64,000 nt of DNA from Leptospirales bacterium (GTDB lineage: Bacteria > Spirochaetota > Leptospiria > Leptospirales > Leptonemataceae), in assembly GCA_016788865.1 (NCBI GenBank), contig JAEUSB010000009.1:1-64000 (forward strand). The letters run 5' to 3'. The position numbers and the translations under genes are program-made. This document shows positions 6,343 to 40,688 of this stretch, piece by piece (the stretch's first letter is position 1; each line of letters starts with the position of its first letter). The notes under the pieces were generated by a model that searched no databases, had not been told where the DNA came from, and saw nothing but the letters and a program-made list of their open reading frames with translations.

Positions 6343-6415
6343 GTCGCGCAAATAACTCTAACCCACCTCCGCAAAGGAAGTCCACCCTCACAGGGGGCGG
6401 GCGAGGTGTGCCCGC
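6343..6415 (+). repeat. Repeat family copy C1 (short form): 5' box GTCGCGCAAAT..., 3' box GTCCACCCTCACAGGGGGCGGG
   Basis: It aligns over about 70 nt with 8363-8445. A potential 9-bp stem (CCCACCTCC/GGGGGCGGG) shows a compensatory U-G pair relative to copy C2. It lies 3' of the permease gene. Confidence 0.6.
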
Positions 6416-6437
6416 GGCGCCTGGAGAGTTGTGCAGA

Positions 6438-8084
6438 TCAGGTACGGCTCAGGTTTCGCAGCGCAGATTCGTCTGCCCGAGTAGGGCCATGGAAGTGCTT
6501 TCGCGAGTAGGCGAACCAGTAGATCGTCAGAAGGATGATCAGCCCGATCATGGACCAGAAGACCAGTTCGTTAGGCGGAAGGACGAACACCACGGTAATC
6601 AGTGCAACCCAGAGAATTGCTACGATGTTGATGATGGGACCAAACTTCTTCATGGTCCACGGCGCATTTTCAGGCGTAGTAAACTCGCCATTTGACTTCA
6701 GCTTGTTTCGCAAGTTCAGTGCAATCGGGATTACATATGCAATGTATAGCGCAATCGTGCTGATCGAAGTGACGACGAAATATGCTGCAGCATACAGGCA
6801 GATCAGGATTGCCAGGATGCTCGTGATCACAATAGACCAGACTGGCGTGCGATACTTTGCATGGATGCGCTTGATCTGCGCGCTTCCTGGCATGCCTTCG
6901 TCACGCGCAAACGCATACCACATACGGCCCATGGAAGTGATGGAAGCCAGGCCGCAAAGCCACATAGCGCCCCCAATGATCACTGCGATCAGGTTGGCAA
7001 AGAATGGTGAAAGGTTTCCATATACGATGAACAGTACGGGAGTTACGTCATTGGCCGTCGCCACTACGTCGCCATTTGGTATGCACCACGTTAATACAAG
7101 GAGCATTATATATCCAACGATCATCGAGATTCCCACAGAGAGGAAGACACCCCAGGCGGAGTTCAGTCTGGCCATGACCGTTTCTTCTGCGACGTGCGCG
7201 GAAGCGTCGTATCCAGTGTATGTCCATTGTGCCTGTAACATTGCCAGCAAGAATACTAGCAAGAAGGGCGCACCATTGTAGAGTTCCTTTAGGCCAGGAA
7301 TCATGAATAACGGCGATGCGAATTTGAAATCACCGATGACAAGAGCCGGCGCGATGTTGCCCTGGGAAATTTCCGCAGACGACGCGTCGAGTGGACTTAC
7401 TACAGTCCCGCTTTGCATTAGAAATGAGGCCGGATTATGGTGTTGCCCGAAAATTGTGAGCAACAGTGCAATAATGACAACGCCACCGATGTGCCACCAA
7501 ACGCTAAAGTCATTCAATCGAGCGGTGAGTTTGATTCCAAATACATTGATCAGCACCTGAGGTACCATGATCAATACCATGACAAGGATCTGGAAATACC
7601 AGTTTTGCACCGAGCCGAATACGGGAATCGAAACGTCGGGGGCTATGCCAAAGATTCTAAGGGTTGCGCCGATGATATATATGGACGCGGCTGCGTTAAT
7701 GCCAGCGGTAACCGTTACCTGGCCGAGCATGTTGAACCATGCAGTAATCCAGGCCCAACCCTTACCACCGAGTCTGTAGGCCCAGAAGTAGAGCCCGCCT
7801 GCTGTTGGATACATTGAAGCGAGCTCTGCCATGCTGGCTGCCACGCAAAGCGTGAACAGACTGACGACAGGCCAACCGACTGTATTGATAATTGGCCCAG
7901 CGAACTTCAGTCCATAACCATAGAGCAGTACAGCGCCCGTCAGGATGGATATGATTGAAAAGCTAATTGCGAAATTGGAGAATCCTCCCATTTCGCGCAA
8001 CAGCTGTTGTGCGTAACCCAGCTTGTGTAAGTCCTGGCTGTCGCTCTGTATGATTTGTTCGCGCGTTTGCTTTTTATCTGGCAT
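6438..8084 (-). CDS. Amino acid permease (APC superfamily)
   Basis: 548 aa with about 12 TM helices and composition typical of the amino acid/polyamine/organocation family. The opposite-strand ORFs across this span are spurious. Confidence 0.85.
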   Translation of the reverse strand: MPDKKQTREQIIQSDSQDLHKLGYAQQLLREMGGFSNFAISFSIISILTGAVLLYGYGLKFAGPIINTVGWPVVSLFTLCVAASMAELASMYPTAGGLYFWAYRLGGKGWAWITAWFNMLGQVTVTAGINAAASIYIIGATLRIFGIAPDVSIPVFGSVQNWYFQILVMVLIMVPQVLINVFGIKLTARLNDFSVWWHIGGVVIIALLLTIFGQHHNPASFLMQSGTVVSPLDASSAEISQGNIAPALVIGDFKFASPLFMIPGLKELYNGAPFLLVFLLAMLQAQWTYTGYDASAHVAEETVMARLNSAWGVFLSVGISMIVGYIMLLVLTWCIPNGDVVATANDVTPVLFIVYGNLSPFFANLIAVIIGGAMWLCGLASITSMGRMWYAFARDEGMPGSAQIKRIHAKYRTPVWSIVITSILAILICLYAAAYFVVTSISTIALYIAYVIPIALNLRNKLKSNGEFTTPENAPWTMKKFGPIINIVAILWVALITVVFVLPPNELVFWSMIGLIILLTIYWFAYSRKHFHGPTRADESALRNLSRT

Positions 8085-8361
8085 GTGTCTTGTTCGATTC
8101 GCCGCACCTTCCTGCCAGTAAAAAAATGAAACGGCCTGAATTTTGGGGTGGAATCCGGAAAATTTGGCGAAGGTCGTTGCGACGAATCTAAGTCCTTGGG
8201 TCTAGCCGCGTTAGGCGATCTTGCATGGATGGCTGCTTAATTTGCGAGCATTCTGAATCCTTTTATGTTCGTGATACTGCGTGTTTTCCATGTGTTAACC
8301 GCACCGGCTATCGCTCTTGACATTTCGCGCATCTCATGATATGCATGGCCGCCGCGCCAGC

Positions 8362-8672
8362 TCCCGATTCGCTTCGCGCAAGACCTCTTTGCCCACCCCC
8401 GCTAAAGAAATCCACCCTCATGGGGGTGGGGTAGATGTGTCCGGGGGGGATCGTGTTTGATGCGCCTCCTCAGGCCCCCCACATCCTTGACAAACGCGAT
8501 GCACACCGCCGAATCCGTCCGGGAAGAGTGGCTTAAGTATCGCCTGTGTTCGGACGTTCCAGTCCTGCGGTGCTCTCGGCTTCAGTTAGTCGGGAGTATG
8601 CCGGCGACCTGCTGCGCTCTTCCCTCAAGGACCTGTGGGTCGAGGGTTCGAATCCCTCATCGGGAAACCGAT
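8362..8672 (+). other. Candidate structured non-coding RNA with a tRNA-like T-arm, in tmRNA-like geometry; identity unresolved
   Basis: There is a canonical T-arm at 8642-8658 (GAGGG-TTCGAAT-CCCTC). It is followed by ATCGGGA, whose exact complement TCCCGAT sits 300 nt upstream at 8362-8368. Alternatively ATCGG-GAAA-CCGAT forms a local tetraloop hairpin. No G3:U70 pair and no convincing tag ORF are present, so the tmRNA assignment is not secure. Confidence 0.25.
8363..8445 (+). repeat. Repeat family copy C2 (short form)
   Basis: The 5' box TTCGCTTCGCGCAAGACC matches the 5' box of the long copies at 26.04 and 40.53 kb. The 3' box AAATCCACCCTCATGGGGGTGGG contains a perfect 9-bp stem, CCCACCCCC...GGGGGTGGG. 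Confidence 0.6.
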
Positions 8673-8941
8673 TAGCTCAGTGGCAGAGCGACAGGCTGCT
8701 AAGGTGTGGCGAGCCTCAAATTGCCAAAAGGGGAAGAGTCAGTCTTTCCGGCGAAAGCAACGGATCGTGCGTCTTGCGAACTGCGGATACCGCCGAACTG
8801 TGCCAGATCGTTTCTTCCGGGCTCGAGCGGTCACTGGATCGCAAGACCCCGGAAGTTCCTCGCTCAGCACACCGGCTCAAGCAAGCTCCCACTCACGGGC
8901 CGGGGAAATTCTGGCTCTTCTCTGCATTTCAGGAGTGATCG

Positions 8942-10054
8942 ATGCATATCAAAGAACATGAGCGCGGACTCGTCTTCCAGAAAGGAAACTACATTCGAAG
9001 AGTCGGCCCTGGATCCCATCCATTGCTTGGATGGACGCCCGGCGTCGATGTAACAATACTTGATACATACAAACTATTTAAGATTAGCCGTGGACTGAAT
9101 GCATTCAGGGCAGATGCCAGGCTCATGGAAGAGATGCGTTTGTTGGACGTCCCGGACAATGGAATCGCCCTCCACTTCACAGATGGCCACCTTGTTGACA
9201 TATTTGGCCCGGGGATTTACGGATACTGGAATGTGGCTGTGGAGCACACGTTCCACATTGCCAATCTAGGCTCTCCGCGCATTGATCCCACGGTAGATCC
9301 CAAAATTCTAAGTAATCCTGCTCTCAGAGACTACCTTCAACGATTCCAGGTGGATGCACATCAGAAGGGGCTATTGTTCTTTGATGGGATCTATCAGGGT
9401 GTGGTCAATCCTGGTGCCTACTATTTCTGGAAAGGATCGGTTCAGGTGACTCTTACTACGGTTGATATGCGACAGCTTCAGGTAGATATGACAGGCCAGG
9501 AGATCTTAACATCGGACCGGGTGAGTGTTCGAATTAACTTCGTCGGACAATATCGCATAACGGACCCAGAAAAGGCGGCACTTCAAACAAAATCGTATGA
9601 AGAGCAACTCTATGTGTCCCTTCAATTGATTCTCCGTGAATATGTGGGTACGCTCACTCTAGACGATTTGTTGCTCAAGAAGGAGGAGATCAACGAGTTT
9701 GTCCTTTCTCGCCTGAAAGCAAAGGGAGCCAGCCTCGGCGTTGAATTTTCGCAGGCAGGCGTGAAGGATATCATTCTCCCGGGTGACTTCAAAGAGATCA
9801 TGAATCTCGTCTTGATCGCAGAGCGAAAAGCCCAGGCCAATCTCGTAACTCGGCGGGAGGAGATAGCATCAACTAGAAGCCTGCTCAATACTGCAAGACT
9901 TATGGACGAGAATCCAACTCTCTACAGGCTCAAGGAGCTGGAGTTCGTGGAGCGCATGGCCGAGAAAGTAGGAAGCGTTTCCCTTTCGCCTGGAACCGGA
10001 TTACTGGAGCAACTGAACGGCTTGATCGCTGCCAGGAAGGCTGACTCGAAATAG
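8942..10054 (+). CDS. SPFH/Band 7 domain protein (stomatin/HflC-like)
   Basis: 370 aa. The N-terminal region ERGLVFQKGNYIRRVGPGSHPL is typical of SPFH domains. The C-terminus is a coiled coil ending in an IAERKAQANL...ARLMDENP-type heptad region. Confidence 0.7.
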   Translation: MHIKEHERGLVFQKGNYIRRVGPGSHPLLGWTPGVDVTILDTYKLFKISRGLNAFRADARLMEEMRLLDVPDNGIALHFTDGHLVDIFGPGIYGYWNVAVEHTFHIANLGSPRIDPTVDPKILSNPALRDYLQRFQVDAHQKGLLFFDGIYQGVVNPGAYYFWKGSVQVTLTTVDMRQLQVDMTGQEILTSDRVSVRINFVGQYRITDPEKAALQTKSYEEQLYVSLQLILREYVGTLTLDDLLLKKEEINEFVLSRLKAKGASLGVEFSQAGVKDIILPGDFKEIMNLVLIAERKAQANLVTRREEIASTRSLLNTARLMDENPTLYRLKELEFVERMAEKVGSVSLSPGTGLLEQLNGLIAARKADSK

Positions 10055-10135
10055 GACCCTGGAAGATGCCGGGAGGGCAGGAATTTTGGCTTGAACCTTT
10101 TGCCTTTCCGATTCGTCTGAACCCCGCAACTAATA

Positions 10136-11149
10136 GTGAGGGTATCTATGCGTCGATTTCTCCCATTTCTCCTGTTCCTCTCGCTGCCCCTGGCCGCTGA
10201 GGACGTGTCCTACCAACGAGCTATGTTCGACATGACTACCACCGGGACGCGAGCGGTTCTCGTGACGCTTGCAAACAATGGATCAAAGAAGCAAACAGAA
10301 ACGGTTACGGTGCGCGTCCAAACCAAAGGAAGCAGCCAGATGTTGGAAATCGGAAGCAAGACGGAACAAATCCCCGCGCATGCAGGGATGCTTTTTGAAA
10401 TCCCTGTCCCTGCAGATACGGTAAAGGCGGAGGTAATCTGGCGCGGACTCAAAAAGAACGACGTGATAGTGCCCGGTGCCCCTGCAAAGCCAGACACAAT
10501 TGCAAATTCTGGCAAAGATTGCTCAAAGAATAATACCTCGATCCGGCACAAACAGAAGATTCGCGACAAAGGTCGAGTCATGCAGTGCAACAACGGAGAG
10601 TTTAAATCCGTGAACGACGGATTTGCAGGCTTCTGTCCATCGGGTTTTGACATTGATCTAAACGGAACTCGTGGGCGGGCTGAGTTCAGCAGCCTGAGTA
10701 TCCTCTCATACAAAAGTGGCGTTCAGTGCTTTTACAAAACCTCCGTTGATCGGTACAGAAAACCATCCGGGCCCGCAGGCGGCGACGCTTCGAGCGTTTG
10801 TAGCTTGAGTCCAAAGAACCCCAGAACCGTAGTGTGTCTCAAGGTGTTCGTCGGATTCAGTATGCCGGAATCATACCAGGGTAAAGTCCTGGATTACGCA
10901 GCTCTCCAAAAGCACGGAACGGCGGATGGAAAGTGGGCCAGTGGAAACGGCGATACGGATTCAGAGGCGACCGTTAAGTTGAATTTTACTAAATCAAGCT
11001 ATGTTGAAGGCAAAGGCTTTCAGTTCACCTATGAGGCAACCGACGCTCGTCTGAAGCTGGAACTCAACCCTGACGATTTTGCACCCTGTGTATCCCAGTC
11101 AAAGGATAAGTTCAGTTGCCCGGCGCGCGTTGTCAAAGAGTTCAACTAA
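10136..11149 (+). CDS. Secreted hypothetical protein with signal peptide, Cys-containing
   Basis: 337 aa. The N-terminal signal peptide is MRRFLPFLLFLSLPLAA. No recognisable motifs were found. Confidence 0.5.
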   Translation: MRVSMRRFLPFLLFLSLPLAAEDVSYQRAMFDMTTTGTRAVLVTLANNGSKKQTETVTVRVQTKGSSQMLEIGSKTEQIPAHAGMLFEIPVPADTVKAEVIWRGLKKNDVIVPGAPAKPDTIANSGKDCSKNNTSIRHKQKIRDKGRVMQCNNGEFKSVNDGFAGFCPSGFDIDLNGTRGRAEFSSLSILSYKSGVQCFYKTSVDRYRKPSGPAGGDASSVCSLSPKNPRTVVCLKVFVGFSMPESYQGKVLDYAALQKHGTADGKWASGNGDTDSEATVKLNFTKSSYVEGKGFQFTYEATDARLKLELNPDDFAPCVSQSKDKFSCPARVVKEFN

Positions 11150-11192
11150 AACTGCGATCGCTAAATTCAAGAACTTAGGGCAGAATTTAGAC

Positions 11193-11219
11193 AAAAAAAA
11201 ACCCGCACTTACGTGCGGG
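11193..11219 (-). terminator. Rho-independent terminator for glnB/glnK (minus strand)
   Basis: On the minus strand the sequence reads CCCGCAC-GTAA-GTGCGGG followed by a T9 run. It lies 20 nt after the P-II stop codon. Confidence 0.7.
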
Positions 11220-11238
11220 TTCAGTGGGGGATGCTAAG

Positions 11239-11580
11239 TTAACCGATTGCTTCTTTACCGCGTTCGCCTGTGCGAATGCGGATGACTTCTTTCAGTTCAG
11301 TTACAAAGATCTTGCCATCACCAATCTTACCAGTGCGGGCACCTTCGATGACCGCTTTGATGGTTGGCTCTACATAGTCTTCGTTGACTGCGATTTCGAA
11401 TACTACCTTGCGGAGCAGATTCACTTGATGAACCGCGCCACGGTAGTTCTCGTCGTAGCCTTTTTGCTGACCGCAGCCCATAGCATTGAGCACAGTCATC
11501 TTGGAAACCCCTGCTTTAAACAGGGCTGTTTTTACATCTTCAACTTTATGAGGTTGAACCATTGCTGTAATTAATTTCAT
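11239..11580 (-). CDS. glnB: Nitrogen regulatory protein P-II
   Basis: 113 aa with full-length similarity to P-II proteins ([17 protein letters not shown]...[11 protein letters not shown]). It is immediately downstream of amt on the same strand. Confidence 0.9.
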
Positions 11581-11595
11581 AGTTATACTCCTATT

Positions 11596-13071: not shown

Positions 13072-13103
13072 CGAATCCTCCTGAGTGATTGCTGCTGGTT
13101 GCT

Positions 13104-15197: not shown

Positions 15198-15200
15198 GAC

Positions 15201-25961: not shown

Positions 25962-26037
25962 AGGGTTCCTGTGGCTCAGTGAGTTTTGAAGCGCGGCGGA
26001 ATTCCAGTATTATTTTCGGCCACCTCTTATACGCTTC

Positions 26038-26198
26038 CGAAACCCGTTCGCGACAAGACCCACGCAGATTTATCCGGCCGGGCAGGTTGCGGTGTGTCGA
26101 GCGCAACAGCGCGGCCCGAGCGTCCGCAACGGCGGAGCGAAGGGCGATGCACGCAACTGCCCGACCGGCAAACCCGCGCGGGGGCCGCCGGAGCGAAG
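26038..26198 (+). repeat. Repeat family copy A (long form, upstream boundary of the giant-protein locus)
   Basis: The 5' ~40 nt (GAAACCCGTTCGCGACAAGACCCACGCAGATTTATCCGG) and the 3' ~35 nt (ACCGGCAAACCCGCGCGGGGGCCGCCGGAGCGAAG) match copy B at 40525-40688. The central ~85 nt differ. Confidence 0.65.
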
Positions 26199-26244
26199 TT
26201 TTTTTGATTGCACGATATTTGCCCTTGGGCGTCTAACGGTCCGC

Positions 26245-26892
26245 ATGGTCTCGCGCCATAGACACGGATTTCGCCTCTTTGTGCTTCTGGCATGTTTGTA
26301 TGCGCCAGCACTGTTGCATGCGCGCTTAACGTCAGAAAACATCGCTCATTCAGGCGATGCTGCAATGCAAGACGAATACGACATAAGTTCTCCTTTCGCA
26401 TCGAGCATTCGTGCGGCGAGTGGAGTAAACGAAAGTATCAATATCTTGCGCCGTGAAACAGCTCGCATGGAATCGGATTCGTTTGAGACGTTCCTGGTCG
26501 AGTCTGAATTGCGCGAAGAGCGCATTGCAATTGGTGCGCTACAGTCTGCAGAAAGATCTATTTCAACCGGAAAGATCATTGAGAGTATCGCGGTCACGGC
26601 CGGGAGTTTCACTCTGGATGGCCTGGATTCGCGCGAAACGAGATTCAAACATATAAAAGACGTAAGATCTTTGAACTCATTTACAGAAGGCGTGCGAATC
26701 GCCCTTCACTATCACTCAATCCGGCAAGGTTACATTCCGGATGATGGTTTACACATCTCTCTTTTCTTCCTGCCAGCGCGCTTTGTTCCATCCTTCTTCA
26801 CTCTTCCTCCTCCCATCATCCAACTAACTAGAACAACCACATGCGACAAGGGCTGTAGCCATTCGCGCGCGCTAATCGGGGTCCTCACATGA
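26245..26892 (+). CDS. Small secreted hypothetical protein (first gene of the giant-protein locus)
   Basis: About 215 aa starting at the Met that precedes the signal-like segment RHGFRLFVLLACLYAPALLHA. The longer ORF-track start at 26092 would run through repeat A. Its stop overlaps the next start (ATGA). Confidence 0.5.
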   Translation: MVSRHRHGFRLFVLLACLYAPALLHARLTSENIAHSGDAAMQDEYDISSPFASSIRAASGVNESINILRRETARMESDSFETFLVESELREERIAIGALQSAERSISTGKIIESIAVTAGSFTLDGLDSRETRFKHIKDVRSLNSFTEGVRIALHYHSIRQGYIPDDGLHISLFFLPARFVPSFFTLPPPIIQLTRTTTCDKGCSHSRALIGVLT

Positions 26893-29800: not shown

Positions 29801-30134
29801 GACGTTAAACGGCATGTCAAAGGTCCAGAACATCCCTGGCTTTGACAACATGTTTGCTGATATCGTAAAACAGCAGCAACTGGCCTACGCAAATGAAGTG
29901 GCACAAAACGAAATTGCAAGGCGGGATCAGGACTTTACCCGGAAAGCAATTTCTGCCGTGACGGCAATGGGTGCGGCCAGGGAAAGAAGTGTCAAGCTTG
30001 AGGCCGTGCTTTCTGCGGGCAATGTGCCTGCATTGACGAGCCTTGCGCGGGCAGATCTATTTATCAGCAAGCGCGCGGAACTTGTAAACGAAGGGGCCAC
30101 AGATACGCCGGAAAGCGCAGTCATTCCATTGTAG
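26889..30134 (+). CDS. 1081-aa signal-anchored coiled-coil protein (unknown function)
   Basis: N-terminal hydrophobic segment LLSAVMSVVMLNAALLPGALIA. The rest is rich in A, E, L, Q and R with heptad-like periodicity. No enzymatic motifs and no Walker A motif were found. Confidence 0.8.
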   Translation: MKIRILSRKTPVIQRSFRLRLLSAVMSVVMLNAALLPGALIARPYASFDEKSKKNMEQYVERGSRLNDENSWNNYLNLGAATEEARWEMDEFEELSRQLDVIDKSDSSKAQKEADKAAAELAFDNARLEWEADADQFIFSERGEFKAQKAALDTVGITDQEYEAMIAQADAAVSSYAELTLDVWENAVASVHTGLAAAFETELGQKVAAARTANLALTGAELAAFDAALTKREETIRQEFLIRDQFFLIKAKNRYVAVMRTDDVSGKYLADQTSANAIGQVVLNQTLEQLEANTESALTQAKEDLKQLESGPSASQSDLTGVWASKMEAVIQTGLVRWQQAEEELYRERLLWTEQTKRSRAEAETIWKANHEKLKAARELWLKNVTDKIKEGRKEWDDKYTEFQNSRTLAEQQLAQFITEEQGRRDAGLASLGNMVRGGGAALLEAKDSYRYYQSLVENMAFAPSQCPTGSTNQDLQLYCFYVKQRDMMGTSISQFQQILASAEANLDANMNSNSGSTGLLKDKRIFAGAIAGEIAALSTSGFRSSLESLASLKQEDFLLYRSDLRSMTDRNELFVQRTEELAGQQFDFNAAASIDALRDMVLGFDSKFSDQKVELIRIINQDRGSIDDTAKLAAIKTDIAAWFTTSQDEDARLKREVTKYFNDGLSGYYLSGEDNDPYLMTRAEYEWELLRRERNTLSDRFKRAEAVKRYADLATKNQAGLEIASITNERAQISKVRTDLREVSYLILKGDIAIDPAAISNNAVRDSEFARVLGERGIDIFLILGRQLLLSEEQGILNDMGGLSNPSQADLAAIRARMDQYLSKIPESERASHRLSALRTKLQEQENSMTSGDPATVANRWTVLRNAAQVLAGEVTALAADYDFTGFQTEVDQIRGQFAQRSVVSLSGDLTLIRAQIEANAALLQTARQELELAKKEYRDARIDFDILRSGNAEELIRIDILNTTTQLSQTLNGMSKVQNIPGFDNMFADIVKQQQLAYANEVAQNEIARRDQDFTRKAISAVTAMGAARERSVKLEAVLSAGNVPALTSLARADLFISKRAELVNEGATDTPESAVIPL

Positions 30135-30232
30135 TTCAGCTGTTTGACTCGCTGAATCAACTCAAAACCCTGCATGCAACCAGAGAGGCGGCGATTGCAG
30201 GCGTCACAACCGAGACTCCGGAAGAAATCGAA

Positions 30233-33200
30233 GTGATGAAAGCCGGGCTATCGGACGTGAGGATTGCAATTGATAGAACCATTGAACAGATTGTAGCTGC
30301 AATCCGCGGCGAAGCAAAGGCCAGAACGGCCGGGGTGCATCAGATCCTGGAAGATGGCGTTGTGGATAAGAAAGCGCTGGCATCGAGCCTGGATCAGGAT
30401 GCAAAGAATCTGCAGACCAGGGCCACAACACTCGGCACAGATACGTCAGACGATCTGACGGATTTTCTAACGCTCAATCGCGGGAAGACGTTCCTGGAAC
30501 TCATGACCTTGATCAACGGTCAGGTGAATGCAGCCCAGAGTCTGGACCTGAGCGACGATGGCTATGGACTTGCAACGGCCGCAAATCCCCAGCTTGCAAA
30601 GCTCAGCATGATCCGGCAGTGGATTCAGTCGCATAAGACGGTAATCGATACGGCCAACCACGTTCCGATCCCGGCGGACACAGACCAGACGACGGTGGTT
30701 GCAAAATGGGATGCACTCCTCTTAACTCTTACGCCTTCCACTGTGAGCGCGCAAACTGCGTCGTATAGCCTGTCGCGCGATACGATTGGACTGACAATGC
30801 AACAACTGGCACTTTCGATTGGGCAGTCTGCTGCAGCCGTGGACACAAATCGAATGGCAGCGCGCGATCAGGTCAAAAGCATAATCGGGTTTTATAAGAC
30901 AGATGCAAACGGACGCGTTCTCAAAGATGCAGCGGGTAAACCGCTTGTTGCGCAAGAATTTGTGGATCTTGGAATCACAGATCCAGATGCAGATCTGCTT
31001 ACAACTCTTGCGGGCAAGCAGAGCGGTGTGAATCTGCAGCGCTGGAGCGAGCGGATTCTTGTGTACCTTTCGCAGCAGCAGAATCAGTCGGGCGTGGATC
31101 CGGCCGTGCTTGCAGGCGCACAGAATCTGGAGAAGGCACTGCGCGATTTGATTACAGCGCGCACCTATATTGAAAACAGAAACAAGACGGCCGCAGACAT
31201 GAAGGCCACGTCCAAACTGGACACGGAGAAATTCGGTGCGCTCACGGCCAAGGCCGGAATCTTTGCGCGCTTTGAATCGACTCTGGCAAGTGCTACGCGC
31301 CAGGCGCGCGATCAGGGAAATGATCCGGTAGATGCGGCACTGTCCGTGCTTGAGTCTGTCGATGCGCTGATCATGTTCAAGATGTTTCTGGGATTTGATG
31401 CTGCGGGAAAGGCTGATGGCTACGCCGATCCTGACATGCAGAAACGCGCAGATGAGCTGAAGAATCTGGCGAACGAGCTGCGTCGCACGCGCGAGATGCG
31501 CACTGTGACCGCTGTCTCTGATCTGTATGCAAGCATGCTCGACGACTACCTCCTTGCAAAGGAGACCGATCCGTCCGCTGTTGCGCCTGACGTGAACGTT
31601 TTTTTAACGGGACAGGGAGTTGTAAAAACAAACGATGCTGTCACGGCGATTACAGCCCTTGCAGACGCTGACTTTGATGCAAAGATTCGCGAGTGGATCA
31701 CGAATGCTCCTGCGAATGCGTTTTTGTCGCGCGGTCGCGTAATTGAAATTCTAAGCAGCAGCACAAGCACAGGTGCTGCACTGAAAGCGGAAATTCTGGC
31801 GGGCCTTGGCGTCTACACCACGGAACTGAGCGATCAGATGACTGTCCTTACAGGACAGCTTACGACTACGGCTGGACTGGATCGCACAACTGAGAAGGCG
31901 ATTGCAGATCTGCTCACGAAACACATTGCCAAGATGAACACGGCAGATCCGCCGGCGGATGCACTGGCCGTGGATCTAAGATCGCTACTGGCAACGGGTG
32001 TGGCAGCGCTCGATGCAATCATTGATGCAGAGGGGCATGCAAGTGCAACGGGTGCAGAGCGCGATGCACTGCGCGAAAACCTGCGAAAAGCAATGCTTGC
32101 AAATTACATTGCTGAGAACCAGGCGAGCTCGCCTGCGGCTGTGATTCAGCTCTTGCGTTCCGAAGCTGTGCGAAATCAGATCTATCCGGATGCAGCGGCG
32201 AAAGCGGGTCTGAATGAGTTTGTTAAAACAGAAAGCGGAAACTTGAATGTGATTGAGGGCCAGTTCTTTGCGGAGCTGGATAAATCGTCCAGCGCGCTTG
32301 CAGTTGCAGCCAAGAACGATCGAGGCAAGATGCTGGAAGCTCTGATTGCGCGCAAGCAGGGCCAGACAACAACGTATTACGATAGTCTTTCCCCGGCGCT
32401 AAAAGCGGAAATCGATTCCCTGAGCACTCGATTCTTTGCAGGGCTCGATACAGCGCAATCAACGGGGCTGATTGCAAAGAGTGGCGACTATTCCAGGATG
32501 TTTGACCTGCGCAGCGGCCAGGAACTGGTCACAAGCGGGATATTTGAGGGACTGGAAAGTTCGCTCTTTGCTGAAATTGAAAAGAGCGGCAATAAGACGT
32601 TAATCGATCAGGCTCGAAATAACAGAAATGCCCTGCTGCGGGCGATGATTGAACAAATGCAGGGTTCTCTCTCGGCTGAGAGCGCCACACTGTTTGGTTT
32701 GATTGGTGGTTCTGCGGTTGCGGTAACGCAGGCAATTGCCAGCATGAATCCAAATCTGAAGAATGTAACCCTTCAGGAATCAGTACTTGTGAATCGTGTA
32801 TTGACTCAATTCATGGAGGACGATGCACTGCGCGGCGATATTGAATCCATCCTGAATGATCCAGGACTCTTTGTGGGTAACTTCGCGAAGTCCCTGAGGC
32901 GCGATCCGCAGAAGAAACTGGGCGCTATATTTCAGAAGGGAACGGCGCTTGCAGATTCAATCTTAACAAACGGCGAGACCCACATCCGCGATATAAGCGG
33001 CATCATGCAGAACTACGGGCGGAAGCTTGAAGCTGCAGCAGCCCTAAAGGAGTTTGCAGAGCGCCGTGGCGACGATCCGCTTACGAGCAGATTCTCGAAC
33101 TACAGAACGCACATAGGTGCGGAACGCAACTACCAGATGGCCGCGTATAAACAGTATCTACGCGGAATGGGAATCAATCCTGATACGGCCGATCCAAACA

Positions 33201-36200
33201 ATCCCGGTGGCGGTGCAATGACCTTCACGCAGATGCAGGGCGGATTGCTCCTGGAGGCAGAATCGCTCAATCTGGACCCAACTACGATATTCAGCGACCC
33301 AGACTGGGAATCAAAGCTGATCAGCGATGATCCAACCCAGTTTGATTCTGTGCAGGTGGATCCAAACGATCCAACGACTACGATTCAAATCAAGCATGTG
33401 GGATCGATCTCTGATCCAGCATCCCGTCAGGGACTGGCAGCCGCAGACGAACTTGCGCGAACCTATCAAGAGAACCTGGCAAATAACTACCTGGAAGCTG
33501 TAACCAGACTGAATGCTGCATTCAACACAGTATTTGAGGCTGCAAAGATTTCTGATACAATGCACACAACGAGTGCACTTGCCACTCTGAAGACGAAGAT
33601 TGGTACATTTGACGCAGAAACATCTGCCGATCTAACCGATTTCACAAGTGCGTTGCAAGAGGCTAATGGACGCGTTGCAAACCACGGGGAAACACAGGTT
33701 CAGGGCAAAAAGCAGGCCATTGCCCAGAGCCAATCAGAATTCAATAAGTCTGCGGATGAATTTGCCGACGCTGCCCGCCGCAACCAGATCCGTACGATGA
33801 ATCTGCTGAGCCAAATCCAGGGCGTGTATGCCGCGATTGCGGATCAGTTTGAAGTGAAGAAGAATGCAGTAGCCGCCCTTTCAGACATTGCAACCAATCT
33901 GGAAGCGCAATTTGGAGCCGCCAATCAAACATACGTGGATGCATTGAATGAAATGGCAGACCGCTTCCGAAAAGTGGAAGGGTCGCGGAATGAGTATGAT
34001 ACAAGACTGGCCGTCAAAGAATACGCTGAGACGCCGTATCTGTACAGCGCAAGTGGCGATGAAGTAGCAGACCTGAACGCATACGCAACAGGTGCACAGG
34101 AAGAGTATGACAGGGCTGCCCAGGTGCTGGCTCTGGCAAATGAGAATCTGGCAAATGCAGGATATCAGGTACAGATTCAGGATAACCTTGCGGGATTCAA
34201 TGACGTGGCTGTGGGAATGGCAAATAACGTAACGTACGCGCCACTTTCTGCTGCGGAACGCGATCAATTATTGAATCTGAGGGATAAGAAGATTGTCCAG
34301 AAACAGACTCTGACCGCTCAGGAAGAACTGGACCTCAAAGCCCTAACAGACCGCGAAACCTATGAAATATATGGAACTCTGATCACTCTACGAGCTGAGG
34401 ACATCAAGCAAACCATGCGCGAAGTCCGCTTACGCAAAGCCAGCGAACTTGTGAACGGAGAGATCAATCGTTTAACGGGGATAGTAGAGGAGAAGAAGAA
34501 GAAATTTGAGACGGCACTGACGAACAACTTTGGCGGTGCAGATACAGATGAAATCAAAACCGCGCGAAATGCAGCGTATCAGCGGCTTGCGTCTCAGGTG
34601 GAAGCAGGAGCGGGAGATTTTTATAACGAGTTCCGCGGTTGGTTCTGGGGAAGTACAAACTGGATAGGGCAACTGGGTTCTAGCGCATTCAGCACGGCGA
34701 TTTCCGGTGGAAGTCAGATGCAAATCACACCAACACAGATGATGGAAGCCGCTGTTGGAATGGGGAGTGCGAACAGTGTATCTGCTGGAGATCAACAGGC
34801 TATTGCGAAGTGGTTGGGAAGTGGGCATTCAGTTGCGGAGTTCTCAGGATTTCAGGGTGTATACTTTGGCCTTCTCATGTCCATGATGAACCGCGACGTG
34901 ATGTACATCAAGAATGTGATCACAATGGGAATTATGATTCCGCTTATGAGTGCGGGATACGCACAAGTTGCGTATGCGAACTATATGGTGCAGGCAGCGG
35001 GTCCATTTGCGGCGTATGCTGCCATTGCGGCTGCGGGTATAAGGGCCGCGGGAATGGCTCAGATTGCCTACGGGCAGACGCAGATTGCTCTGTCTAATGC
35101 ACAATACCTGATGTCTAATATTATGATGTTTGGAATGCAGGTGGCATCCGTGCAATCGGCAGGAACGGGAAGCACACAGGCTGTATTGGCGAAACAGAGG
35201 GAATACGAAGCAGCACAGGCACAATTGAACTATTTCACAAAGGTGCCTGACGTTCAAACGATGAAGCAAAGGTTGATTCAATACGGTGCGCAACATGGAG
35301 ATTCCGAATCCGCGAATGCTTTGTACAGCCTTACAGACGAGGATTTGAAATACCTGTTTGATAATTCGTCCGGATTCAAGGATTCAAGCGGAAATGCGCA
35401 AACACTGAGCACTCAGGAAGAACAGGATGCCCTGGAAGTAACGACGGCCAAAGATCAGGCCACATTTGTGGATTCATACGGGAGAAGATACGATCCAACG
35501 ACCCTTGTGTACTCACCTCCAGGACCTCTGGATGGCGGTGTTTACAAGACAGGCTCCGGCGATTATACCCGAGTCCAGACAGCGACGCATAACGGTAGCA
35601 TGGTTTGGGGCTATGCGAAGATTGTGGGTGCCACGAATACCTACGCCGTGTACAACATGGGGCACATACTGGACATGCTGGTAGACCACGGACAGGATTT
35701 GAGAGATCAAGCCAGAGATGCCTATATTGCAGAGGGAAACAACGTTGCAACGCAGACAGACGACATGGCTTTTATCCTGGCCGAAAGAGACCAGACATTC
35801 GACGATCTATTCAACCAGGCCGCAGGTCGAGTGAACGGAGGACGCGAATTCTCCGGATACACAATGGTGTATGAGGAATACGGGCAAAACCAGCGCGATA
35901 TCTATGCGATGGAGCTTCAGCAGAAGGCGGCAATCCAGCAGAAGGAATGGGATTTGCGGGAGGCACAATTCCTGGCCAAAAGAGATGCATGGGACAAGAA
36001 GATGGCAGTCATCCTTGACCGCGGAAGAAAGGCGTGGGCATCGTCAGAGGATCAATTCCTCCAGAAGTGGAGAGACTGGGAGAAGCAATTTGATAAAGAC
36101 GCTGCGGCTGGAAAAGCTGAGTGGGACAAGAAGATTGCCCAGCATTTTACGGACAAGAAGAAATGGGAAGCAGACATCAGGCATAACGCAAGTGTTGCAA

Positions 36201-39200
36201 CGATCCAGAACACGCTGAGTAAGGCTATAGATGATCTGAATTCACAGATCCGAACCGCCCGAGAGAATATTCATGCAAATATTCCAGAGCTGAATACCAC
36301 TGCGATGGTTCAGGAAGCAATTGCTGATCTGAAGCGGAAAGAACCAACGTTAAGCGAGAAGTTCAAAGAGATAAACGCCAATATTGACAATTTCAATACA
36401 CGCCTTGCAATCTCCGAGATTACTGGCTCAACGACCATGGTCTCTTCCGCAATCACATCTGCGTATAAGAGCCAGATGGAAACGCATGAGAAGGGAATGA
36501 AGGTACTGGCAAATGTTCAAATATTTGAGCAGTACAGGCGTATTGTAGACGAGTTCAAGGTTGGAATTGAGAATCAGAATGTAGCTATTGAAAACCAAAC
36601 GAATGCAGCGGCTTTAGGGCAGGGCTTTACGAAGCTTGGCAGCACATTCATCAAGAAGGGTGCAATCTCCAGTGCCTGGGGTGCTGTGAACGCGTATTCA
36701 TGGTTTGATTCAGATTCAGCCATCCAGAGCGGTCTTCAAGAATCAGGCTTCACAAGTTTAACAGGCAATGCACTCACAAACTACCTGGAAACAAAAGATC
36801 AGGTGGAAGTGGATGCGTTCTTCTACACACAGAAGCTAGCGGTACAGACGGTATTTGAGAAGATCATGGGCAAGGGTACTGAGGCTGAACGGAAAGGCTC
36901 CCAGGATGAAAGGGTAATTGGGAAATTTGCCAAGTGGGCAGGGAAAGGACCGGGTTCTGAGGAACAGAGCACGATCCAGGGGCTAAATGACGCGGCGAAG
37001 AGTCACGGCGTGGAACTCAAGGCGCAAGAAAGTCAGCTGCTGAGTGCGGTGGGCGGTTTTGGTGAACTTGGAGAGTTTGGAACACGACCCGGTGGCGCTC
37101 CAATGGGCTTTTATCTGCAAATGCAGCTGATGGGAGCGAGTGTTAGCCAGGGCGATGCAAGCAAACTGGCGGGTATGGGAGGGGTGGATCCTCTCACGAC
37201 GATGATCAATCAGTACAACCCAATGGCCATGATGGCCAACAGTACGCTTAACGTTAAGATCGCTGCGGCCACATTGGGCAAGGACGAAGGCTACATGTGG
37301 GAAGCGCAGGCGATTAACCTCCTGAAAATGCCAATCACAATGGCAGGTTCTGCGTTCATGACGGCAGGCGTTGCGGCGATGGTGACCGGAATTGGCTTTG
37401 TGGGCGGGGCGATCATGGCAGCCGGGGGCATGGCTCTATCTGCTCTGGGCAATTCCATTTCAGTGAACCCCACGACGGGTGAGCGGATTACAAAAATGAC
37501 CGATCAGGCTGCGATGAATACGGGAATTGCCACGGTTACGTCCTTCCTTGGTGGGGCCGCACAAGGGTTCAAGGCGCTTGAAGGAGTGGCCAAGACAGCC
37601 GAGGCTGCCAAAGGGTTCGCGCAGAGTGCACAGATGGCACAGAGCGTTGCTGTGGCGGCAGGTATTGTTGGAACAGCGGCCACCGCAGGAACCAGATTCG
37701 ATGCAAACGGAAACAGGCAGGGATGGAGCGCAACGTCGCATAACGGAGACTTGCATGGCGAGAAGCTGTTGCTGGCGACAGGTGTCAGTGCTGCAACGGC
37801 AGCCGCAGGCGGAGCATTCGCGAAGGACCTGTCAGGGACAGCTACGAACGCAAATCTGGCGATGCTGGAAGGATTCAAGCAGTCGCTACGCAGCGATTTC
37901 ATAGGAACGGCGATTAACGTTACAGCACAGTATGGAGCAAAACAGGCATGGGGTGCTGAGCATTCAAGCTATGATGCGATGGCGCACGCGGACTTGAGCA
38001 GAATCGGGGGATTGGCCATGGGCGCGTATCTGGCCGGGAAAGATTCCCAGGACCGGTACCAACAGACAGAGTATCTCAAAGGAGTCTATGCGGACGCAGT
38101 AAAGCAGGGCAATACTGCAAAGGCTGCCGAAGCGTACAAAGCACTGGTTGCGATGGGAGTTCTGAGAAGCCGTGAGGAAGAGCAGCAGGAGATGATGAAG
38201 AAGGATCTTCCTGTGACAGGAAGTGACCTTGCGAAGTTGTTACGGGCTGCGTTCAACGCCGACGGAAGACTGGGCAATCCGAACGATCCGAAATCGTGGG
38301 AAGCAGGCGAGAAGATCACAACGGCATTGACCGCTGACGTAGAGGCACTTACGGCAGCTAAAGGCGGCAAGCTAACAATAGCGGACGCATTTGCGATTGC
38401 CGACGCGCATGGAATTGGCCCGAGTATATTATTCACCGGAGCGAATGCTGCGGAAGCACAGCGATTGTTTGGCCAGAACTGGAGCGGGGCGTATAAAGAG
38501 CTGTTTGGGGCGCAAGGATATGGGCTGCAGCAGATTAACAACGAAAGGACCGTTGGGTATACTTCAATGGATCCGCGCACTCCTGATAACGGAGGAGTCT
38601 ACAACGATCCCTGGGGACCGGGATTCAACATGAGTCATGCGAGTGGGGCGAATGTGTTTACAGACACTAACGGAAAGATACTGGACGTATCCGATCCGGA
38701 GGCACTTGCGCAATGGGAGGCGCAGCAACAGGCGATGCGGGAATTCCGGGATCATGTTCAAGCGATCCGCAATCAGGGAATGGACGTACTTGCGCAGGGA
38801 AACAGTGGAGCACACTGGTATATGGAGGCCATGGGCCCCGGTGGGGCCAATTACGGTGAGTATTATGAGCTGGGCTTTGGGGTTGGAAAGATGGGAGGCA
38901 TTGACTGGTCTGCGCGAGGGCTGGTAGGAAACTATGTTAAAATGTCTGGGCTGTTTTCTGGGATTGGTCCCATTGCGGATTGGCTGGCAAGTACGATGGA
39001 CAGCCTTACCGGGGTAAGGACGGCGCAGGAGAAACAACAGGCCAATCTTCAAACGCTCATTGATCAGGCCGGCGGTGACCCTTACAAGCTTGCCGGGCTA
39101 CTGAGTGGCTTCGAGGCTGGCGACGCAGGTGGTCAAGGCGCAGTAATGGTAGCGGATATACTTGGAGGCCTCATGGCTGGGGGTGGCTTTGGTCTAGTGA

Positions 39201-39616
39201 GGGGAATAGCGGCCGAACGGGCTGCGCTTCGCGCAATTAGCCTGGAGCGAGATGTTCTAATGGGTTCAACACCAGGTAAAGCTTCGTGGCAAGGGAAAGT
39301 AGTCATCGAGCGCATGCGGAGCTTGGGGCTGATAATGGAGGACCCATTGAAGGGAACCATGTTCAAAGACAGCAAGGGCGTCTGGCGTCCACTGGAACGT
39401 GGCGATATGTCACACAAAGTTGACGCAGTCAAATACTGGAACGAAATTGGACGTAAGCACGGGGCACGATCCGAAGAAGTACGAGCGTTTATGAAAGACC
39501 CGGACAACTACCACATAGACTATCGCGGCATTAACAGGGGCGATGGCGCTCGGATTAAGAATGCGGGAGCGCGGTATTTACCGCCGCTTAAACTGTACGT
39601 GTCTCCCATAAAATAA
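30233..39616 (+). CDS. Giant 3127-aa alpha-helical protein with two Gly/Ala-rich hydrophobic segments and a C-terminal HNH/colicin-DNase-like signature (unknown family)
   Basis: Uninterrupted 9.4-kb ORF starting at GTG 30233 or ATG 30236. The first ~1500 aa are coiled-coil-like. Two hydrophobic glycine-zipper-like segments lie at ~34850-35180 and ~37170-37720. The C-terminus reads SHKVDAVKYWNE...DPDNYHIDYRGINRG, resembling colicin DNase HH...DN...HIDIHRG. There are no RHS/YD, haemagglutinin or ATPase motifs. Confidence 0.85.
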   Translation: MMKAGLSDVRIAIDRTIEQIVAAIRGEAKARTAGVHQILEDGVVDKKALASSLDQDAKNLQTRATTLGTDTSDDLTDFLTLNRGKTFLELMTLINGQVNAAQSLDLSDDGYGLATAANPQLAKLSMIRQWIQSHKTVIDTANHVPIPADTDQTTVVAKWDALLLTLTPSTVSAQTASYSLSRDTIGLTMQQLALSIGQSAAAVDTNRMAARDQVKSIIGFYKTDANGRVLKDAAGKPLVAQEFVDLGITDPDADLLTTLAGKQSGVNLQRWSERILVYLSQQQNQSGVDPAVLAGAQNLEKALRDLITARTYIENRNKTAADMKATSKLDTEKFGALTAKAGIFARFESTLASATRQARDQGNDPVDAALSVLESVDALIMFKMFLGFDAAGKADGYADPDMQKRADELKNLANELRRTREMRTVTAVSDLYASMLDDYLLAKETDPSAVAPDVNVFLTGQGVVKTNDAVTAITALADADFDAKIREWITNAPANAFLSRGRVIEILSSSTSTGAALKAEILAGLGVYTTELSDQMTVLTGQLTTTAGLDRTTEKAIADLLTKHIAKMNTADPPADALAVDLRSLLATGVAALDAIIDAEGHASATGAERDALRENLRKAMLANYIAENQASSPAAVIQLLRSEAVRNQIYPDAAAKAGLNEFVKTESGNLNVIEGQFFAELDKSSSALAVAAKNDRGKMLEALIARKQGQTTTYYDSLSPALKAEIDSLSTRFFAGLDTAQSTGLIAKSGDYSRMFDLRSGQELVTSGIFEGLESSLFAEIEKSGNKTLIDQARNNRNALLRAMIEQMQGSLSAESATLFGLIGGSAVAVTQAIASMNPNLKNVTLQESVLVNRVLTQFMEDDALRGDIESILNDPGLFVGNFAKSLRRDPQKKLGAIFQKGTALADSILTNGETHIRDISGIMQNYGRKLEAAAALKEFAERRGDDPLTSRFSNYRTHIGAERNYQMAAYKQYLRGMGINPDTADPNNPGGGAMTFTQMQGGLLLEAESLNLDPTTIFSDPDWESKLISDDPTQFDSVQVDPNDPTTTIQIKHVGSISDPASRQGLAAADELARTYQENLANNYLEAVTRLNAAFNTVFEAAKISDTMHTTSALATLKTKIGTFDAETSADLTDFTSALQEANGRVANHGETQVQGKKQAIAQSQSEFNKSADEFADAARRNQIRTMNLLSQIQGVYAAIADQFEVKKNAVAALSDIATNLEAQFGAANQTYVDALNEMADRFRKVEGSRNEYDTRLAVKEYAETPYLYSASGDEVADLNAYATGAQEEYDRAAQVLALANENLANAGYQVQIQDNLAGFNDVAVGMANNVTYAPLSAAERDQLLNLRDKKIVQKQTLTAQEELDLKALTDRETYEIYGTLITLRAEDIKQTMREVRLRKASELVNGEINRLTGIVEEKKKKFETALTNNFGGADTDEIKTARNAAYQRLASQVEAGAGDFYNEFRGWFWGSTNWIGQLGSSAFSTAISGGSQMQITPTQMMEAAVGMGSANSVSAGDQQAIAKWLGSGHSVAEFSGFQGVYFGLLMSMMNRDVMYIKNVITMGIMIPLMSAGYAQVAYANYMVQAAGPFAAYAAIAAAGIRAAGMAQIAYGQTQIALSNAQYLMSNIMMFGMQVASVQSAGTGSTQAVLAKQREYEAAQAQLNYFTKVPDVQTMKQRLIQYGAQHGDSESANALYSLTDEDLKYLFDNSSGFKDSSGNAQTLSTQEEQDALEVTTAKDQATFVDSYGRRYDPTTLVYSPPGPLDGGVYKTGSGDYTRVQTATHNGSMVWGYAKIVGATNTYAVYNMGHILDMLVDHGQDLRDQARDAYIAEGNNVATQTDDMAFILAERDQTFDDLFNQAAGRVNGGREFSGYTMVYEEYGQNQRDIYAMELQQKAAIQQKEWDLREAQFLAKRDAWDKKMAVILDRGRKAWASSEDQFLQKWRDWEKQFDKDAAAGKAEWDKKIAQHFTDKKKWEADIRHNASVATIQNTLSKAIDDLNSQIRTARENIHANIPELNTTAMVQEAIADLKRKEPTLSEKFKEINANIDNFNTRLAISEITGSTTMVSSAITSAYKSQMETHEKGMKVLANVQIFEQYRRIVDEFKVGIENQNVAIENQTNAAALGQGFTKLGSTFIKKGAISSAWGAVNAYSWFDSDSAIQSGLQESGFTSLTGNALTNYLETKDQVEVDAFFYTQKLAVQTVFEKIMGKGTEAERKGSQDERVIGKFAKWAGKGPGSEEQSTIQGLNDAAKSHGVELKAQESQLLSAVGGFGELGEFGTRPGGAPMGFYLQMQLMGASVSQGDASKLAGMGGVDPLTTMINQYNPMAMMANSTLNVKIAAATLGKDEGYMWEAQAINLLKMPITMAGSAFMTAGVAAMVTGIGFVGGAIMAAGGMALSALGNSISVNPTTGERITKMTDQAAMNTGIATVTSFLGGAAQGFKALEGVAKTAEAAKGFAQSAQMAQSVAVAAGIVGTAATAGTRFDANGNRQGWSATSHNGDLHGEKLLLATGVSAATAAAGGAFAKDLSGTATNANLAMLEGFKQSLRSDFIGTAINVTAQYGAKQAWGAEHSSYDAMAHADLSRIGGLAMGAYLAGKDSQDRYQQTEYLKGVYADAVKQGNTAKAAEAYKALVAMGVLRSREEEQQEMMKKDLPVTGSDLAKLLRAAFNADGRLGNPNDPKSWEAGEKITTALTADVEALTAAKGGKLTIADAFAIADAHGIGPSILFTGANAAEAQRLFGQNWSGAYKELFGAQGYGLQQINNERTVGYTSMDPRTPDNGGVYNDPWGPGFNMSHASGANVFTDTNGKILDVSDPEALAQWEAQQQAMREFRDHVQAIRNQGMDVLAQGNSGAHWYMEAMGPGGANYGEYYELGFGVGKMGGIDWSARGLVGNYVKMSGLFSGIGPIADWLASTMDSLTGVRTAQEKQQANLQTLIDQAGGDPYKLAGLLSGFEAGDAGGQGAVMVADILGGLMAGGGFGLVRGIAAERAALRAISLERDVLMGSTPGKASWQGKVVIERMRSLGLIMEDPLKGTMFKDSKGVWRPLERGDMSHKVDAVKYWNEIGRKHGARSEEVRAFMKDPDNYHIDYRGINRGDGARIKNAGARYLPPLKLYVSPIK

Positions 39617-39629
39617 AGAAGGTGGAATT

Positions 39630-40022
39630 ATGGATGTGATGGAAGCCCTACAGCCTGCTGGAGCACTTTACAAACAAGGAGAATATGCTGCTGCTCTGCA
39701 GATAGTCAGGAATCTGTGGGAAAAAATTCCGGACCCCAAAACTCAAGATGGAAATGCATACAATGTAATAGAGTATGCAGTTGCACTCTGTATAAAGCTG
39801 AATGATCTGGACTCCGCGTGGTTGTGGGCAAACAAGAGTTTCCCCTTCGGGGAAAAGACGCACGTCATGGGCGAAGGTGAGTTCCTTATCGGAAAGGTGG
39901 CTTTCTTACGCGGTGATATGGATGCTGCTCGCGAAAATTTTGCAGTGGCTCACAAGAAATCGGGTGGTCGGATCTTCAAGGGAGAAGATCCAAAGTACAA
40001 GGCACTGCTAAAAAAGAAATAA
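39630..40022 (+). CDS. 130-aa cytoplasmic helical (TPR-like) protein, candidate immunity/partner protein
   Basis: It starts 14 bp after the giant ORF stop. It has no signal peptide and a helical-repeat composition. Confidence 0.55.
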   Translation: MDVMEALQPAGALYKQGEYAAALQIVRNLWEKIPDPKTQDGNAYNVIEYAVALCIKLNDLDSAWLWANKSFPFGEKTHVMGEGEFLIGKVAFLRGDMDAARENFAVAHKKSGGRIFKGEDPKYKALLKKK

Positions 40023-40524
40023 CGTAATCTCACTGAGAATGACCTGGTTTCAGGATGGAGCTCCCCCGCCATTGCGCATAATGCAGAGCTAACCGAAGCC
40101 CGGCAGGGTTTGGGCGCGCAGCGCGCCCCCGGGCGGCGAGCCATCGAGCCGAAAGTCGTTGCGGTAAAACGAAGCCCGATAGCGGTTAGGGTCAATTATG
40201 CGGGCAGTGGCGGAAGAGAAGATGTCGCAGTTCGAGCTGCCAAGCATTGTTTTGAAAGCATTTCGGGCCTACTACCTGAATTCAAATCCGCGCAGCGGAT
40301 TTGTTTCGTCCTCTTTCTTAGACGTTACACAGCATTTAATACCAAAAGAACCCCGGCCCCCCGTGATCAAACGGGTGGCCCAATCCCCGACGCGAAGTAT
40401 CCTATTTAGTACAAACCTTCAGTAGTACAAAGTAACCTCGCCAGCCCGTGCGGCCGCTCTCGGACATCCATGTCCTTCGCGGCACCTCGCCATCCGTGGA
40501 TGAGCCCGGCCCGCGCCAGACTCA

Positions 40525-40688
40525 GAACCCAGTTCGCGACAAGACCCACCGCAGATTTATCCGGTGAGAAGAGCGCGACGCCGTGCAGTGAGTCGGATAC
40601 GAACGGCCCTCGGCTCGGAACACCGCGCCGAGGGGCAGGCGCGCGCTCTCTCACCGGCAAACCACCTGCGGGGGTCGCCAGAGCGAAT
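40525..40688 (+). repeat. Repeat family copy B (long form, downstream boundary of the giant-protein locus)
   Basis: Direct repeat of copy A. The 5' box is GAACCCAGTTCGCGACAAGACCCACCGCAGATTTATCCGG and the 3' box is TCACCGGCAAACCACCTGCGGGGGTCGCCAGAGCGAAT. Confidence 0.65.

Follow-up and report, generated by a model that had tools for sequence, protein, structure and literature searches.

The first 64,000 nucleotides (nt) of contig JAEUSB010000009.1 from a Leptospirales bacterium (assembly GCA_016788865.1), here called the window, contain four GC-rich repeats in direct orientation, C1 to C4. C1 and C2 flank an amino-acid permease gene on the minus strand, and C3 and C4 flank an operon that encodes a giant protein. 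Are these repeats the boundaries of mobile cargo, or fixed structures that belong to the genes beside them? A first-pass annotation, made from the sequence letters, had placed all four in a single family with a short and a long form. Mobile elements of the MITE type, boundaries of variable islands and structured RNAs at operon ends had been considered as explanations. The four copies, their orientation and both flanked loci were recovered, and neither of the two pairs can be put down to chance. Of the earlier readings, that of structured elements at operon ends lies nearest to the conclusion reached here. The repeats are read as two unrelated small families of two copies each, fixed cis-acting GC-rich hairpins at the borders of transcription units and not mobile DNA. 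This reading is given about an even chance. Ranked below it are dispersed repeats of the REPIN or MITE type, then small-RNA genes, then recombination sites. As far as sequence comparison indicates, both families occur in one Leptospirales lineage only; elements of this general kind are known, and the sequences themselves match no described family.

Sequence material

The window, with a GC content of about 52%, was compared with GCA_021413825.1 (loci L031 and L034; DNA identity to the window about 74–83%), Logan SRR31912325 / SRR31912327 (loci L035–L038; about 82–90%) and Logan ERR15459719 (locus L039; about 77–82%). The lineage DNA covered amounts to about 140 kb, of which 64 kb are from the source genome and about 75 kb from relatives. 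Pairwise local scores were tested against 1000 dinucleotide shuffles. A covariance model of the short family was built on five members.

Two families of repeats

C1 and C2, the short family, share about 78% identity over 75–85 nt, with a local score of 54 against 14.1 ± 2.3 for shuffled sequence (0/1000). C3 and C4, the long family, yield a local score of 70 against 19 ± 2.6 (0/1000). Their similarity lies at the ends. The 5′ 45 nt match at 39/45 positions, the inner box at 33/34, and the 3′ 36 nt at 30/36 (about 83%). The cores of 87 and 89 nt match at 52/94 positions, the value expected from shuffled sequence. Upstream, the similarity ends about 12 nt before the closing helix.

The first-pass annotation took the short form for the long form without its core. 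Window C2 indeed carries the box TTCGCG(A)CAAGACC as in C3 and C4 (13/14, p ~0.02), and a loosely colinear stretch AAnCCACC..GGGGGT can be traced. The box is limited to this one copy. Against the long boxes, neither C1 and its ortholog nor the two C2 orthologs score better than chance, and the C2 orthologs read CAGAATCC and CGGAAAATCC where window C2 has CAAGACC. The C3/C4 profile finds neither C1 nor C2, and the short profile neither C3 nor C4, at E<=100. The covariance model matched just its five members at E<=10, with C3 and C4 not found. A single family is very unlikely, and the sequence evidence points to two separate ones. An ending near GAGCGAA, ascribed earlier to all four copies, holds for the long copies and fails for the short ones. 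A fifth 5′ box reported at about 8835 (GATCGCAAGACCCCGG) belongs to another element; it is located inside a different conserved non-coding block, where it belongs to a predicted helix and is itself conserved.

Conservation and synteny in relatives

C1 and C2 occur at the same sites in L037 and L038, and C2 also in L039. C1 is 98.8% identical to its counterpart in L037 over about 84 nt, against 60–75% in the flanks. For the C2 core, identity is 100% to L037 and 80% to L039, against 15–70% in the surrounding spacer. Flanking spacer in the relative of about 88% identity reaches 35–80%. Conservation so far above that of spacer argues for purifying selection on the short elements. In L031, the 5′ half of C1 is missing through an indel. 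One hairpin, GCCCGC-ACA-GCGGGC, is kept directly after the MBOAT stop codon, with one two-sided change and one repaired mismatch relative to C1.

A C4 ortholog in L035 abuts the same stop codon as in the window, and the adjacent protein is 91% identical. The L035 contig begins within the element, so that just the 3′ half is readable; assemblies often break at repeats. This copy is mosaic in make-up, with an apical hairpin that resembles C4 (23/25) and a lower stem and 3′ box that resemble C3; the 3′ box is identical to that of C3. The description of the long cores as non-homologous thus stands for the pair in the window, whereas the L035 ortholog links both cores. About half of the positions in the inner stem of window C4 differ from the ortholog, yet the stem is almost perfectly self-complementary. 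Independent point changes are implausible as the cause; exchange between copies, or the copying of one arm from the other, could account for it.

GCA_021413825.1 lacks C2 and C3. One unrelated 366-amino-acid (aa) gene replaces C2, the 460-nt non-coding block behind it, the SPFH gene and a 337-aa gene. The replaced block corresponds to window positions ~8227–11238, between the permease and P-II genes, and synteny is kept on both sides. At C3, homology to the window starts exactly at the T run that follows the element, with another hairpin in front of it. Among the relatives, missing elements were seen only in this genome of about 76% identity, where the surrounding genes also differ. Four genomes have the permease in the same position, whether the elements are present or not.

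Each pair is located in neighbouring long spacers around exactly one transcription unit. The chance of such neighbouring placement is about 0.1 per pair, given about 19 spacers of at least 100 nt, and any two direct copies bracket something. Local duplication, or a role at both ends of one transcript, would each yield the bracketing of one unit. Site-specific recombination sites (integron attC, dif or att) delimiting exchangeable cassettes would likewise be direct and enclose one unit. Conserved ends around a variable, hairpin-forming centre resemble attC, where direct-orientation sites with conserved ends flank genes and the variable centre keeps its structure, and the synteny break with GCA_021413825.1 coincides with the 3′ end of C3. 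However, the attC boxes RYYYAAC/GTTRRRY are absent. On the plus strand the ends are GTTCGCG...GAGCGAA instead, and on the minus strand TTCGCTC...CGCGAAC. No integrase or recombinase was found among the open reading frames (ORFs) of the window, and the bracketed units were not seen to move. The permease keeps its place whether or not the elements are there, the giant operon of the relative comes with no C3-like remnant, and a unit of 14.5 kb is far above the size of an integron cassette. Recombination sites are very unlikely. Integron attC was rejected for its wrong boxes and the missing integrase, and island att sites for full-length copies at both ends and an operon without C3 in the relative.

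The elements do touch variable DNA, namely at the C2 block, the C3 edge and the 5′ half of C1, but in the genomes compared the bracketed genes do not move with them. The proposal that the repeats bracket a cargo finds no support in this comparison, with the giant operon present without C3 and the permease without C2.

Folds and positions at transcription units

The two most stable 120-nt folds of the 64-kb window coincide with C4 (-71.4 kcal/mol) and C3 (-63.1 kcal/mol), and the C1 region gives the third. Despite unrelated core sequences, C3 and C4 share a common architecture, each a rod of 155–170 nt. Its base consists of a closing helix (UUCGC/GCGAA), a loop, a helix with a bulged A, and an internal loop (AUUUAUCC/CAAACC). 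The upper part comprises a stem of 22–23 bp and a three-way junction with a small tetraloop hairpin and a longer hairpin. Shuffle z-scores are -2.2 (plus strand) and -4.6 (minus strand) for C3, and -8.9 and -5.8 for C4, respectively. C3 has 8 G-U pairs on the minus strand against 2 on the plus strand. All elements are GC-rich (65–72%, against 52% for the genome).

In the short family, a stem of 9–10 bp (CCCACCNCC/GGGGGNGGG) is about 93% paired across the five sequences; an alternative 6-bp stem (CCACCC/GGGNGG) is likewise about 93% paired. The earlier claim of a hairpin holds in that the stems form. A U-G pair in C1, described as compensatory, is a one-sided wobble change, and the C1 stem carries an A.C mismatch besides. 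On the permease sense strand, both cores present a GC hairpin and a U-rich tail at the matching place.

C1 is located in the spacer between the MBOAT stop (6171) and the permease stop (6438–6440). On the permease sense strand it begins 16 nt past the stop codon. C2 is found upstream of the permease, 279 nt from its start (8084), and precedes a conserved TTGACA (8487) by 33 nt. C3, with a promoter-like site about 25 nt upstream, has a 323-aa minus-strand gene on one side (start 25961) and the giant operon on the other (start 26245). It is followed by a U7 run and then 46 nt to the first start codon of the operon, which is backed by alignment with L034. The T run is assigned to the upstream region of the operon and not to the repeat, because L034 has it after a different hairpin. 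C4, which has no clear U tract, is found about 500 nt past the last gene of the operon, and with its last base it adjoins the stop codon (40688–40690) of a conserved minus-strand gene of about 150 aa, convergent to the operon. Positions are compiled in Table 1.

Table 1. Repeats and other features of the window; limits of C1 to C4 as refined by profile and covariance-model searches
Feature	Positions	Strand	Remarks
C1, short family	6338–6422	–	conserved core ~6362–6415
Terminator-like hairpin within C1	6372–6400	minus	CCGCCC CCTGTGA GGGTGG, then ACTTCCTTTG; permease sense strand
Permease gene	6438–8084	minus	flanked by C1 and C2
C2, short family	8363–8454	–	conserved core ~8392–8446
Terminator-like hairpin within C2	8402–8429	minus	CCACCC CCATGA GGGTGG, then ATTTCTTTAG; stem kept in L037 and L039
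Non-coding block	8477–8941	plus	~460 nt, upstream of SPFH gene, opened by conserved TTGACA
Permuted tRNA-like module	8634–8693		within the non-coding block
Fifth box	8838–8853		within the non-coding block
C3, long family	26034–26199	–	5′ box 26034–26077, core 26078–26164, 3′ box 26165–26199
T run	26199–26206	plus	directly 3′ of C3; also in L034 after a different hairpin
Giant operon	26245–40022	plus	four genes of 215, 1081, 3127 and 130 aa; flanked by C3 and C4
Terminator-like hairpin of the operon	40284–40306	plus	AAATCCGC-GCA-GCGGATTT, then GTTTCG
C4, long family	40520–40688	–	5′ box 40520–40564, core 40565–40653, 3′ box 40654–40688
Guanylate cyclase-domain ORF	46995–47492	plus	165 aa

Further copies and mobility

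An exact pattern of the long 5′ box gave 30 matches in 185,579 species genomes, all of them chance matches inside genes or an unrelated Cytophagaceae repeat. Scans of JGI metagenomes with the long 5′ box and with a degenerate short core yielded zero matches. Scans of viral contigs gave zero matches or three chance coding matches, and BLASTN against plasmids and phages found none. With nhmmer and covariance models, no copy was added in the window or in about 75 kb from relatives. Transposase, integrase, reverse transcriptase and Ro60 families were not found among the window ORFs. A target-site duplication was seen neither at C3 (..CCCG / GTTT..) nor at C4 (..CCAG / TTAC..). About 33 kb compared at 12% divergence contained no lineage-specific insertion, and every copy in a relative is orthologous.

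The Cytophagaceae repeat, from the metagenome-assembled genome CAZKBP01 (L015 ~740–890 and L029 ~5690–5900), is an unrelated local repeat of about 40 nt (..TTCGGTGCTTCGCGACAAGACCCTTGCAGGGTGACAAG..) with several nearby copies. It includes the 15-nt long-family box by chance.

These searches bear on the possibility that the repeats are dispersed selfish foldback elements (REPIN, ERIC or MITE), moved by a transposase encoded elsewhere, with the bracketing incidental. Imperfect terminal inverted repeats in the long element (TTCGC..GACCC.CCGCAG) fit such an origin, as does a GC content of 65–72% in a genome of 52%. The mosaic in L035 and the assembly break inside it suggest a pool of copies. Absence of C2 and C3 from GCA_021413825.1, together with the indel in its C1, would also agree with it. 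The selfish reading is nevertheless unlikely. Neither target-site duplications at C3 or C4 nor lineage-specific insertions were found, C1 and C2 are much better conserved than neutral spacer, the window contains no transposase or RAYT gene and the copies no conserved GTAG/CGTC tag, and the genome, JGI metagenome, viral, plasmid and phage sets returned no copy. MITE-like mobility, as proposed in the first pass, conflicts in addition with the presence of C1, C2 and C4 at orthologous sites across 12–22% DNA divergence.

Comparison with known elements

REP/BIME and REPIN elements are thought to serve in termination and mRNA stabilisation. REP/REPIN are present in tens to hundreds of copies per genome, together with a RAYT gene. 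Like them, the repeats of the window are GC-rich imperfect palindromes in spacers, often just past stop codons, whose arms stay complementary. The short core hairpin fits the REP size of a 20–40 nt imperfect palindrome; the long elements of 155–170 nt do not. Unlike REP, the long element has four times the REP size, two copies per family were seen in about 140 kb, and the positions are conserved across species. A RAYT or Y1 transposase is not among the Pfam matches of the window ORFs. REP/REPIN carry a conserved GTAG or CGTC tetranucleotide at one end (PMC3733652). The repeats lack such a tag. GTAG occurs just in C2 of the window and of L037; at this spot L039 reads GGAG and C1 GCGAGG, and C3 and C4 have nothing comparable.

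ERIC elements, enterobacterial imperfect palindromes of about 127 bp, are co-transcribed with flanking genes and show size variants from internal changes. The 100–170 nt elements with long RNA hairpins resemble them, but share no sequence similarity and belong to a different phylum. Bacterial MITEs such as Correia and RUP are likewise short, non-coding and rod-like in fold, and have imperfect terminal inverted repeats. The long family has such repeats as well: TTCGC..GACCC(A)CCGCAG is matched by its reverse complement at the 3′ end. Unlike MITEs, the elements are not flanked by target-site duplications, show no insertion polymorphism in the relatives compared, and lack a parent insertion sequence.

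Intrinsic (Rho-independent) terminators are approached by C1, a GC-rich hairpin with a U-rich tail after a stop codon, and by C3 with its hairpin and U7. Copy by copy, C1 fits a terminator on the minus strand, C2 has the structure without an upstream gene, and C3 has U7 on the plus strand without an upstream plus-strand gene. Unlike in such terminators, loop and flank sequences are conserved between paralogs and orthologs, and the long stem is far longer than usual.

Independent paralogous small-RNA genes would be another explanation for C3 and C4, and possibly for C1 and C2. Their basal helices and loops would bind a protein or target, and the apical domain would be variable. Conserved ends around a core that varies in sequence and retains its structure agree with this, as do the promoter-like site upstream and the U7 downstream of C3. 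The minus-strand G-U bias of C3 hints at pairing on the RNA level, and a Y-RNA-like module nearby indicates that the region encodes structured RNAs. However, C3 and C4 have no common promoter or terminator, and upstream they are similar over no more than about 12 nt beyond the closing helix. A relative without C3 likewise has the U run that follows C3 in the window, and C4 overlaps a stop codon. Rfam 15 gave no match at the gathering score, and none at E<=10 on C1–C4 beyond noise. Bacterial Y RNAs contain the Ro60-binding motif GNCGAAN0-1G in a stem and are encoded within 4 kb of a Ro60 ortholog (PMC4201824). C3 and C4 read AGCGAA(G/T) instead, and the window contains no TROVE gene. Small-RNA genes are thus quite unlikely, and Y RNA stems were rejected on motif and missing Ro60 gene.

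Some further candidates were discarded. For retron RNA, no reverse transcriptase was found and the topology is wrong. A small peptide gene fails on an ATG that is not kept in C1, and a G-quadruplex on the four G runs, which are not present in C1.

Proposed function

Fixed hairpins at transcription-unit borders remain the preferred reading. What we infer of transcription, active strand and function from positions, folds and conservation is as follows. The core of the short family is a conserved sequence of about 55 nt, which on the permease sense strand would form a GC hairpin of 6–8 bp with a U-rich tail. C1 most likely ends or stabilises the permease mRNA. In line with the preferred reading, L031 keeps that hairpin by stop codons after losing the rest of C1. 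C2 would be an old paralogous copy upstream of the permease, kept by selection; its probable role is that of an insulating terminator, an attenuator or a site bound by a factor shared with C1. In the long family, C3 with its U7 would be part of the leader of the giant operon, and C4 would follow the operon at the stop codon of the convergent gene. Both most likely serve as hairpins at the boundary, blocking read-through, attenuating transcription or protecting RNA ends. The long copies appear to exchange sequence, resulting in mosaics whose arms remain complementary. Both pairs presumably arose by local duplication.

Several observations weigh against these assignments. C3 folds better as the minus strand, at -91 against -77 kcal/mol (a gain of 14). 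C4 is equal on both strands, and neither G-U counts nor z-scores give a strand assignment. C2 and C3 are located in divergent spacers, where no upstream gene needs a terminator. The scan tool called 2 terminator-like sites in the real sequence against 2.5 in shuffles. Tails after the terminator-like hairpins are just moderately U-rich, and loop and tail of the short family are more conserved than a plain terminator requires. Two-sided pair changes were seen in neither stem across the five short-family sequences. Between orthologs, the 3′ half of the long element diverges faster than the gene beside it, with 63 of 79–80 bases matching between the L035 copy and window C4 (about 79%) against 88.6% identity in that gene. 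The copy number is based on about 140 kb of this lineage.

A more specific proposal, put forward with little confidence, treats the long element as an undescribed structured RNA of Leptospirales that, from its position at either end of the giant operon, would control read-through or stability of this operon, and the short element as a second such motif, for the permease. The rod of about 155 nt might then offer its conserved basal helices and internal loops as a protein-binding platform, below an apical three-way junction that evolves fast and keeps its structure; this too is quite improbable.

Neighbouring features

A hairpin about 230 nt before C4 looks like the giant operon's own terminator (Table 1). 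The scan tool made no call there, since the T tail is too weak. With a cutoff of E<=0.001, Pfam gave no family for the four operon proteins. Only 9 database relatives of the giant protein were found at E<=1e-20, most of them of 4,800–5,000 aa and with 27–39% identity. A distant homolog locus of the giant gene (L043) contains ordinary hairpins only and no flanking hairpins like C3 or C4. A general tie of such hairpins to giant genes was rejected on this ground.

The non-coding block upstream of the SPFH gene is 93–100% identical to L037 and 70–97% to L039, and is better conserved than coding DNA. Its extended predicted fold is accompanied by many wobble-compatible changes and 5 two-sided changes. 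The permuted tRNA-like module within it matches Rfam YrlA with 35–40 bits in three genomes, below the gathering score of 69. The block may be a large structured leader or a non-coding RNA with an embedded Y-RNA-like domain.

The closest named homologs of the permease outside the lineage (71–73% identity) are annotated as Gemmatimonadales and not as spirochaetes, which hints at acquisition by horizontal transfer. The guanylate cyclase-domain ORF of the window compares with 345 aa in L035 (7951–8988); the shorter window copy may reflect truncation or a wrongly placed start. L037 contains an extra segment of about 1.5 kb (3774–5303) with a 406-aa gene, between the Zn-peptidase and 332-aa genes, that is not present in the window.

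Implications

The practical value of the analysis is a correction: the repeats form two families instead of one, and carriage of a cargo is without evidence. If the hairpins do mark and insulate transcription units, they would provide a handle on the control of gene boundaries in a little-studied, uncultured branch of the Leptospirales. Otherwise they would be ordinary spacer repeats. The long family would in the former case show how a long hairpin keeps its shape while sequence is swapped between copies.

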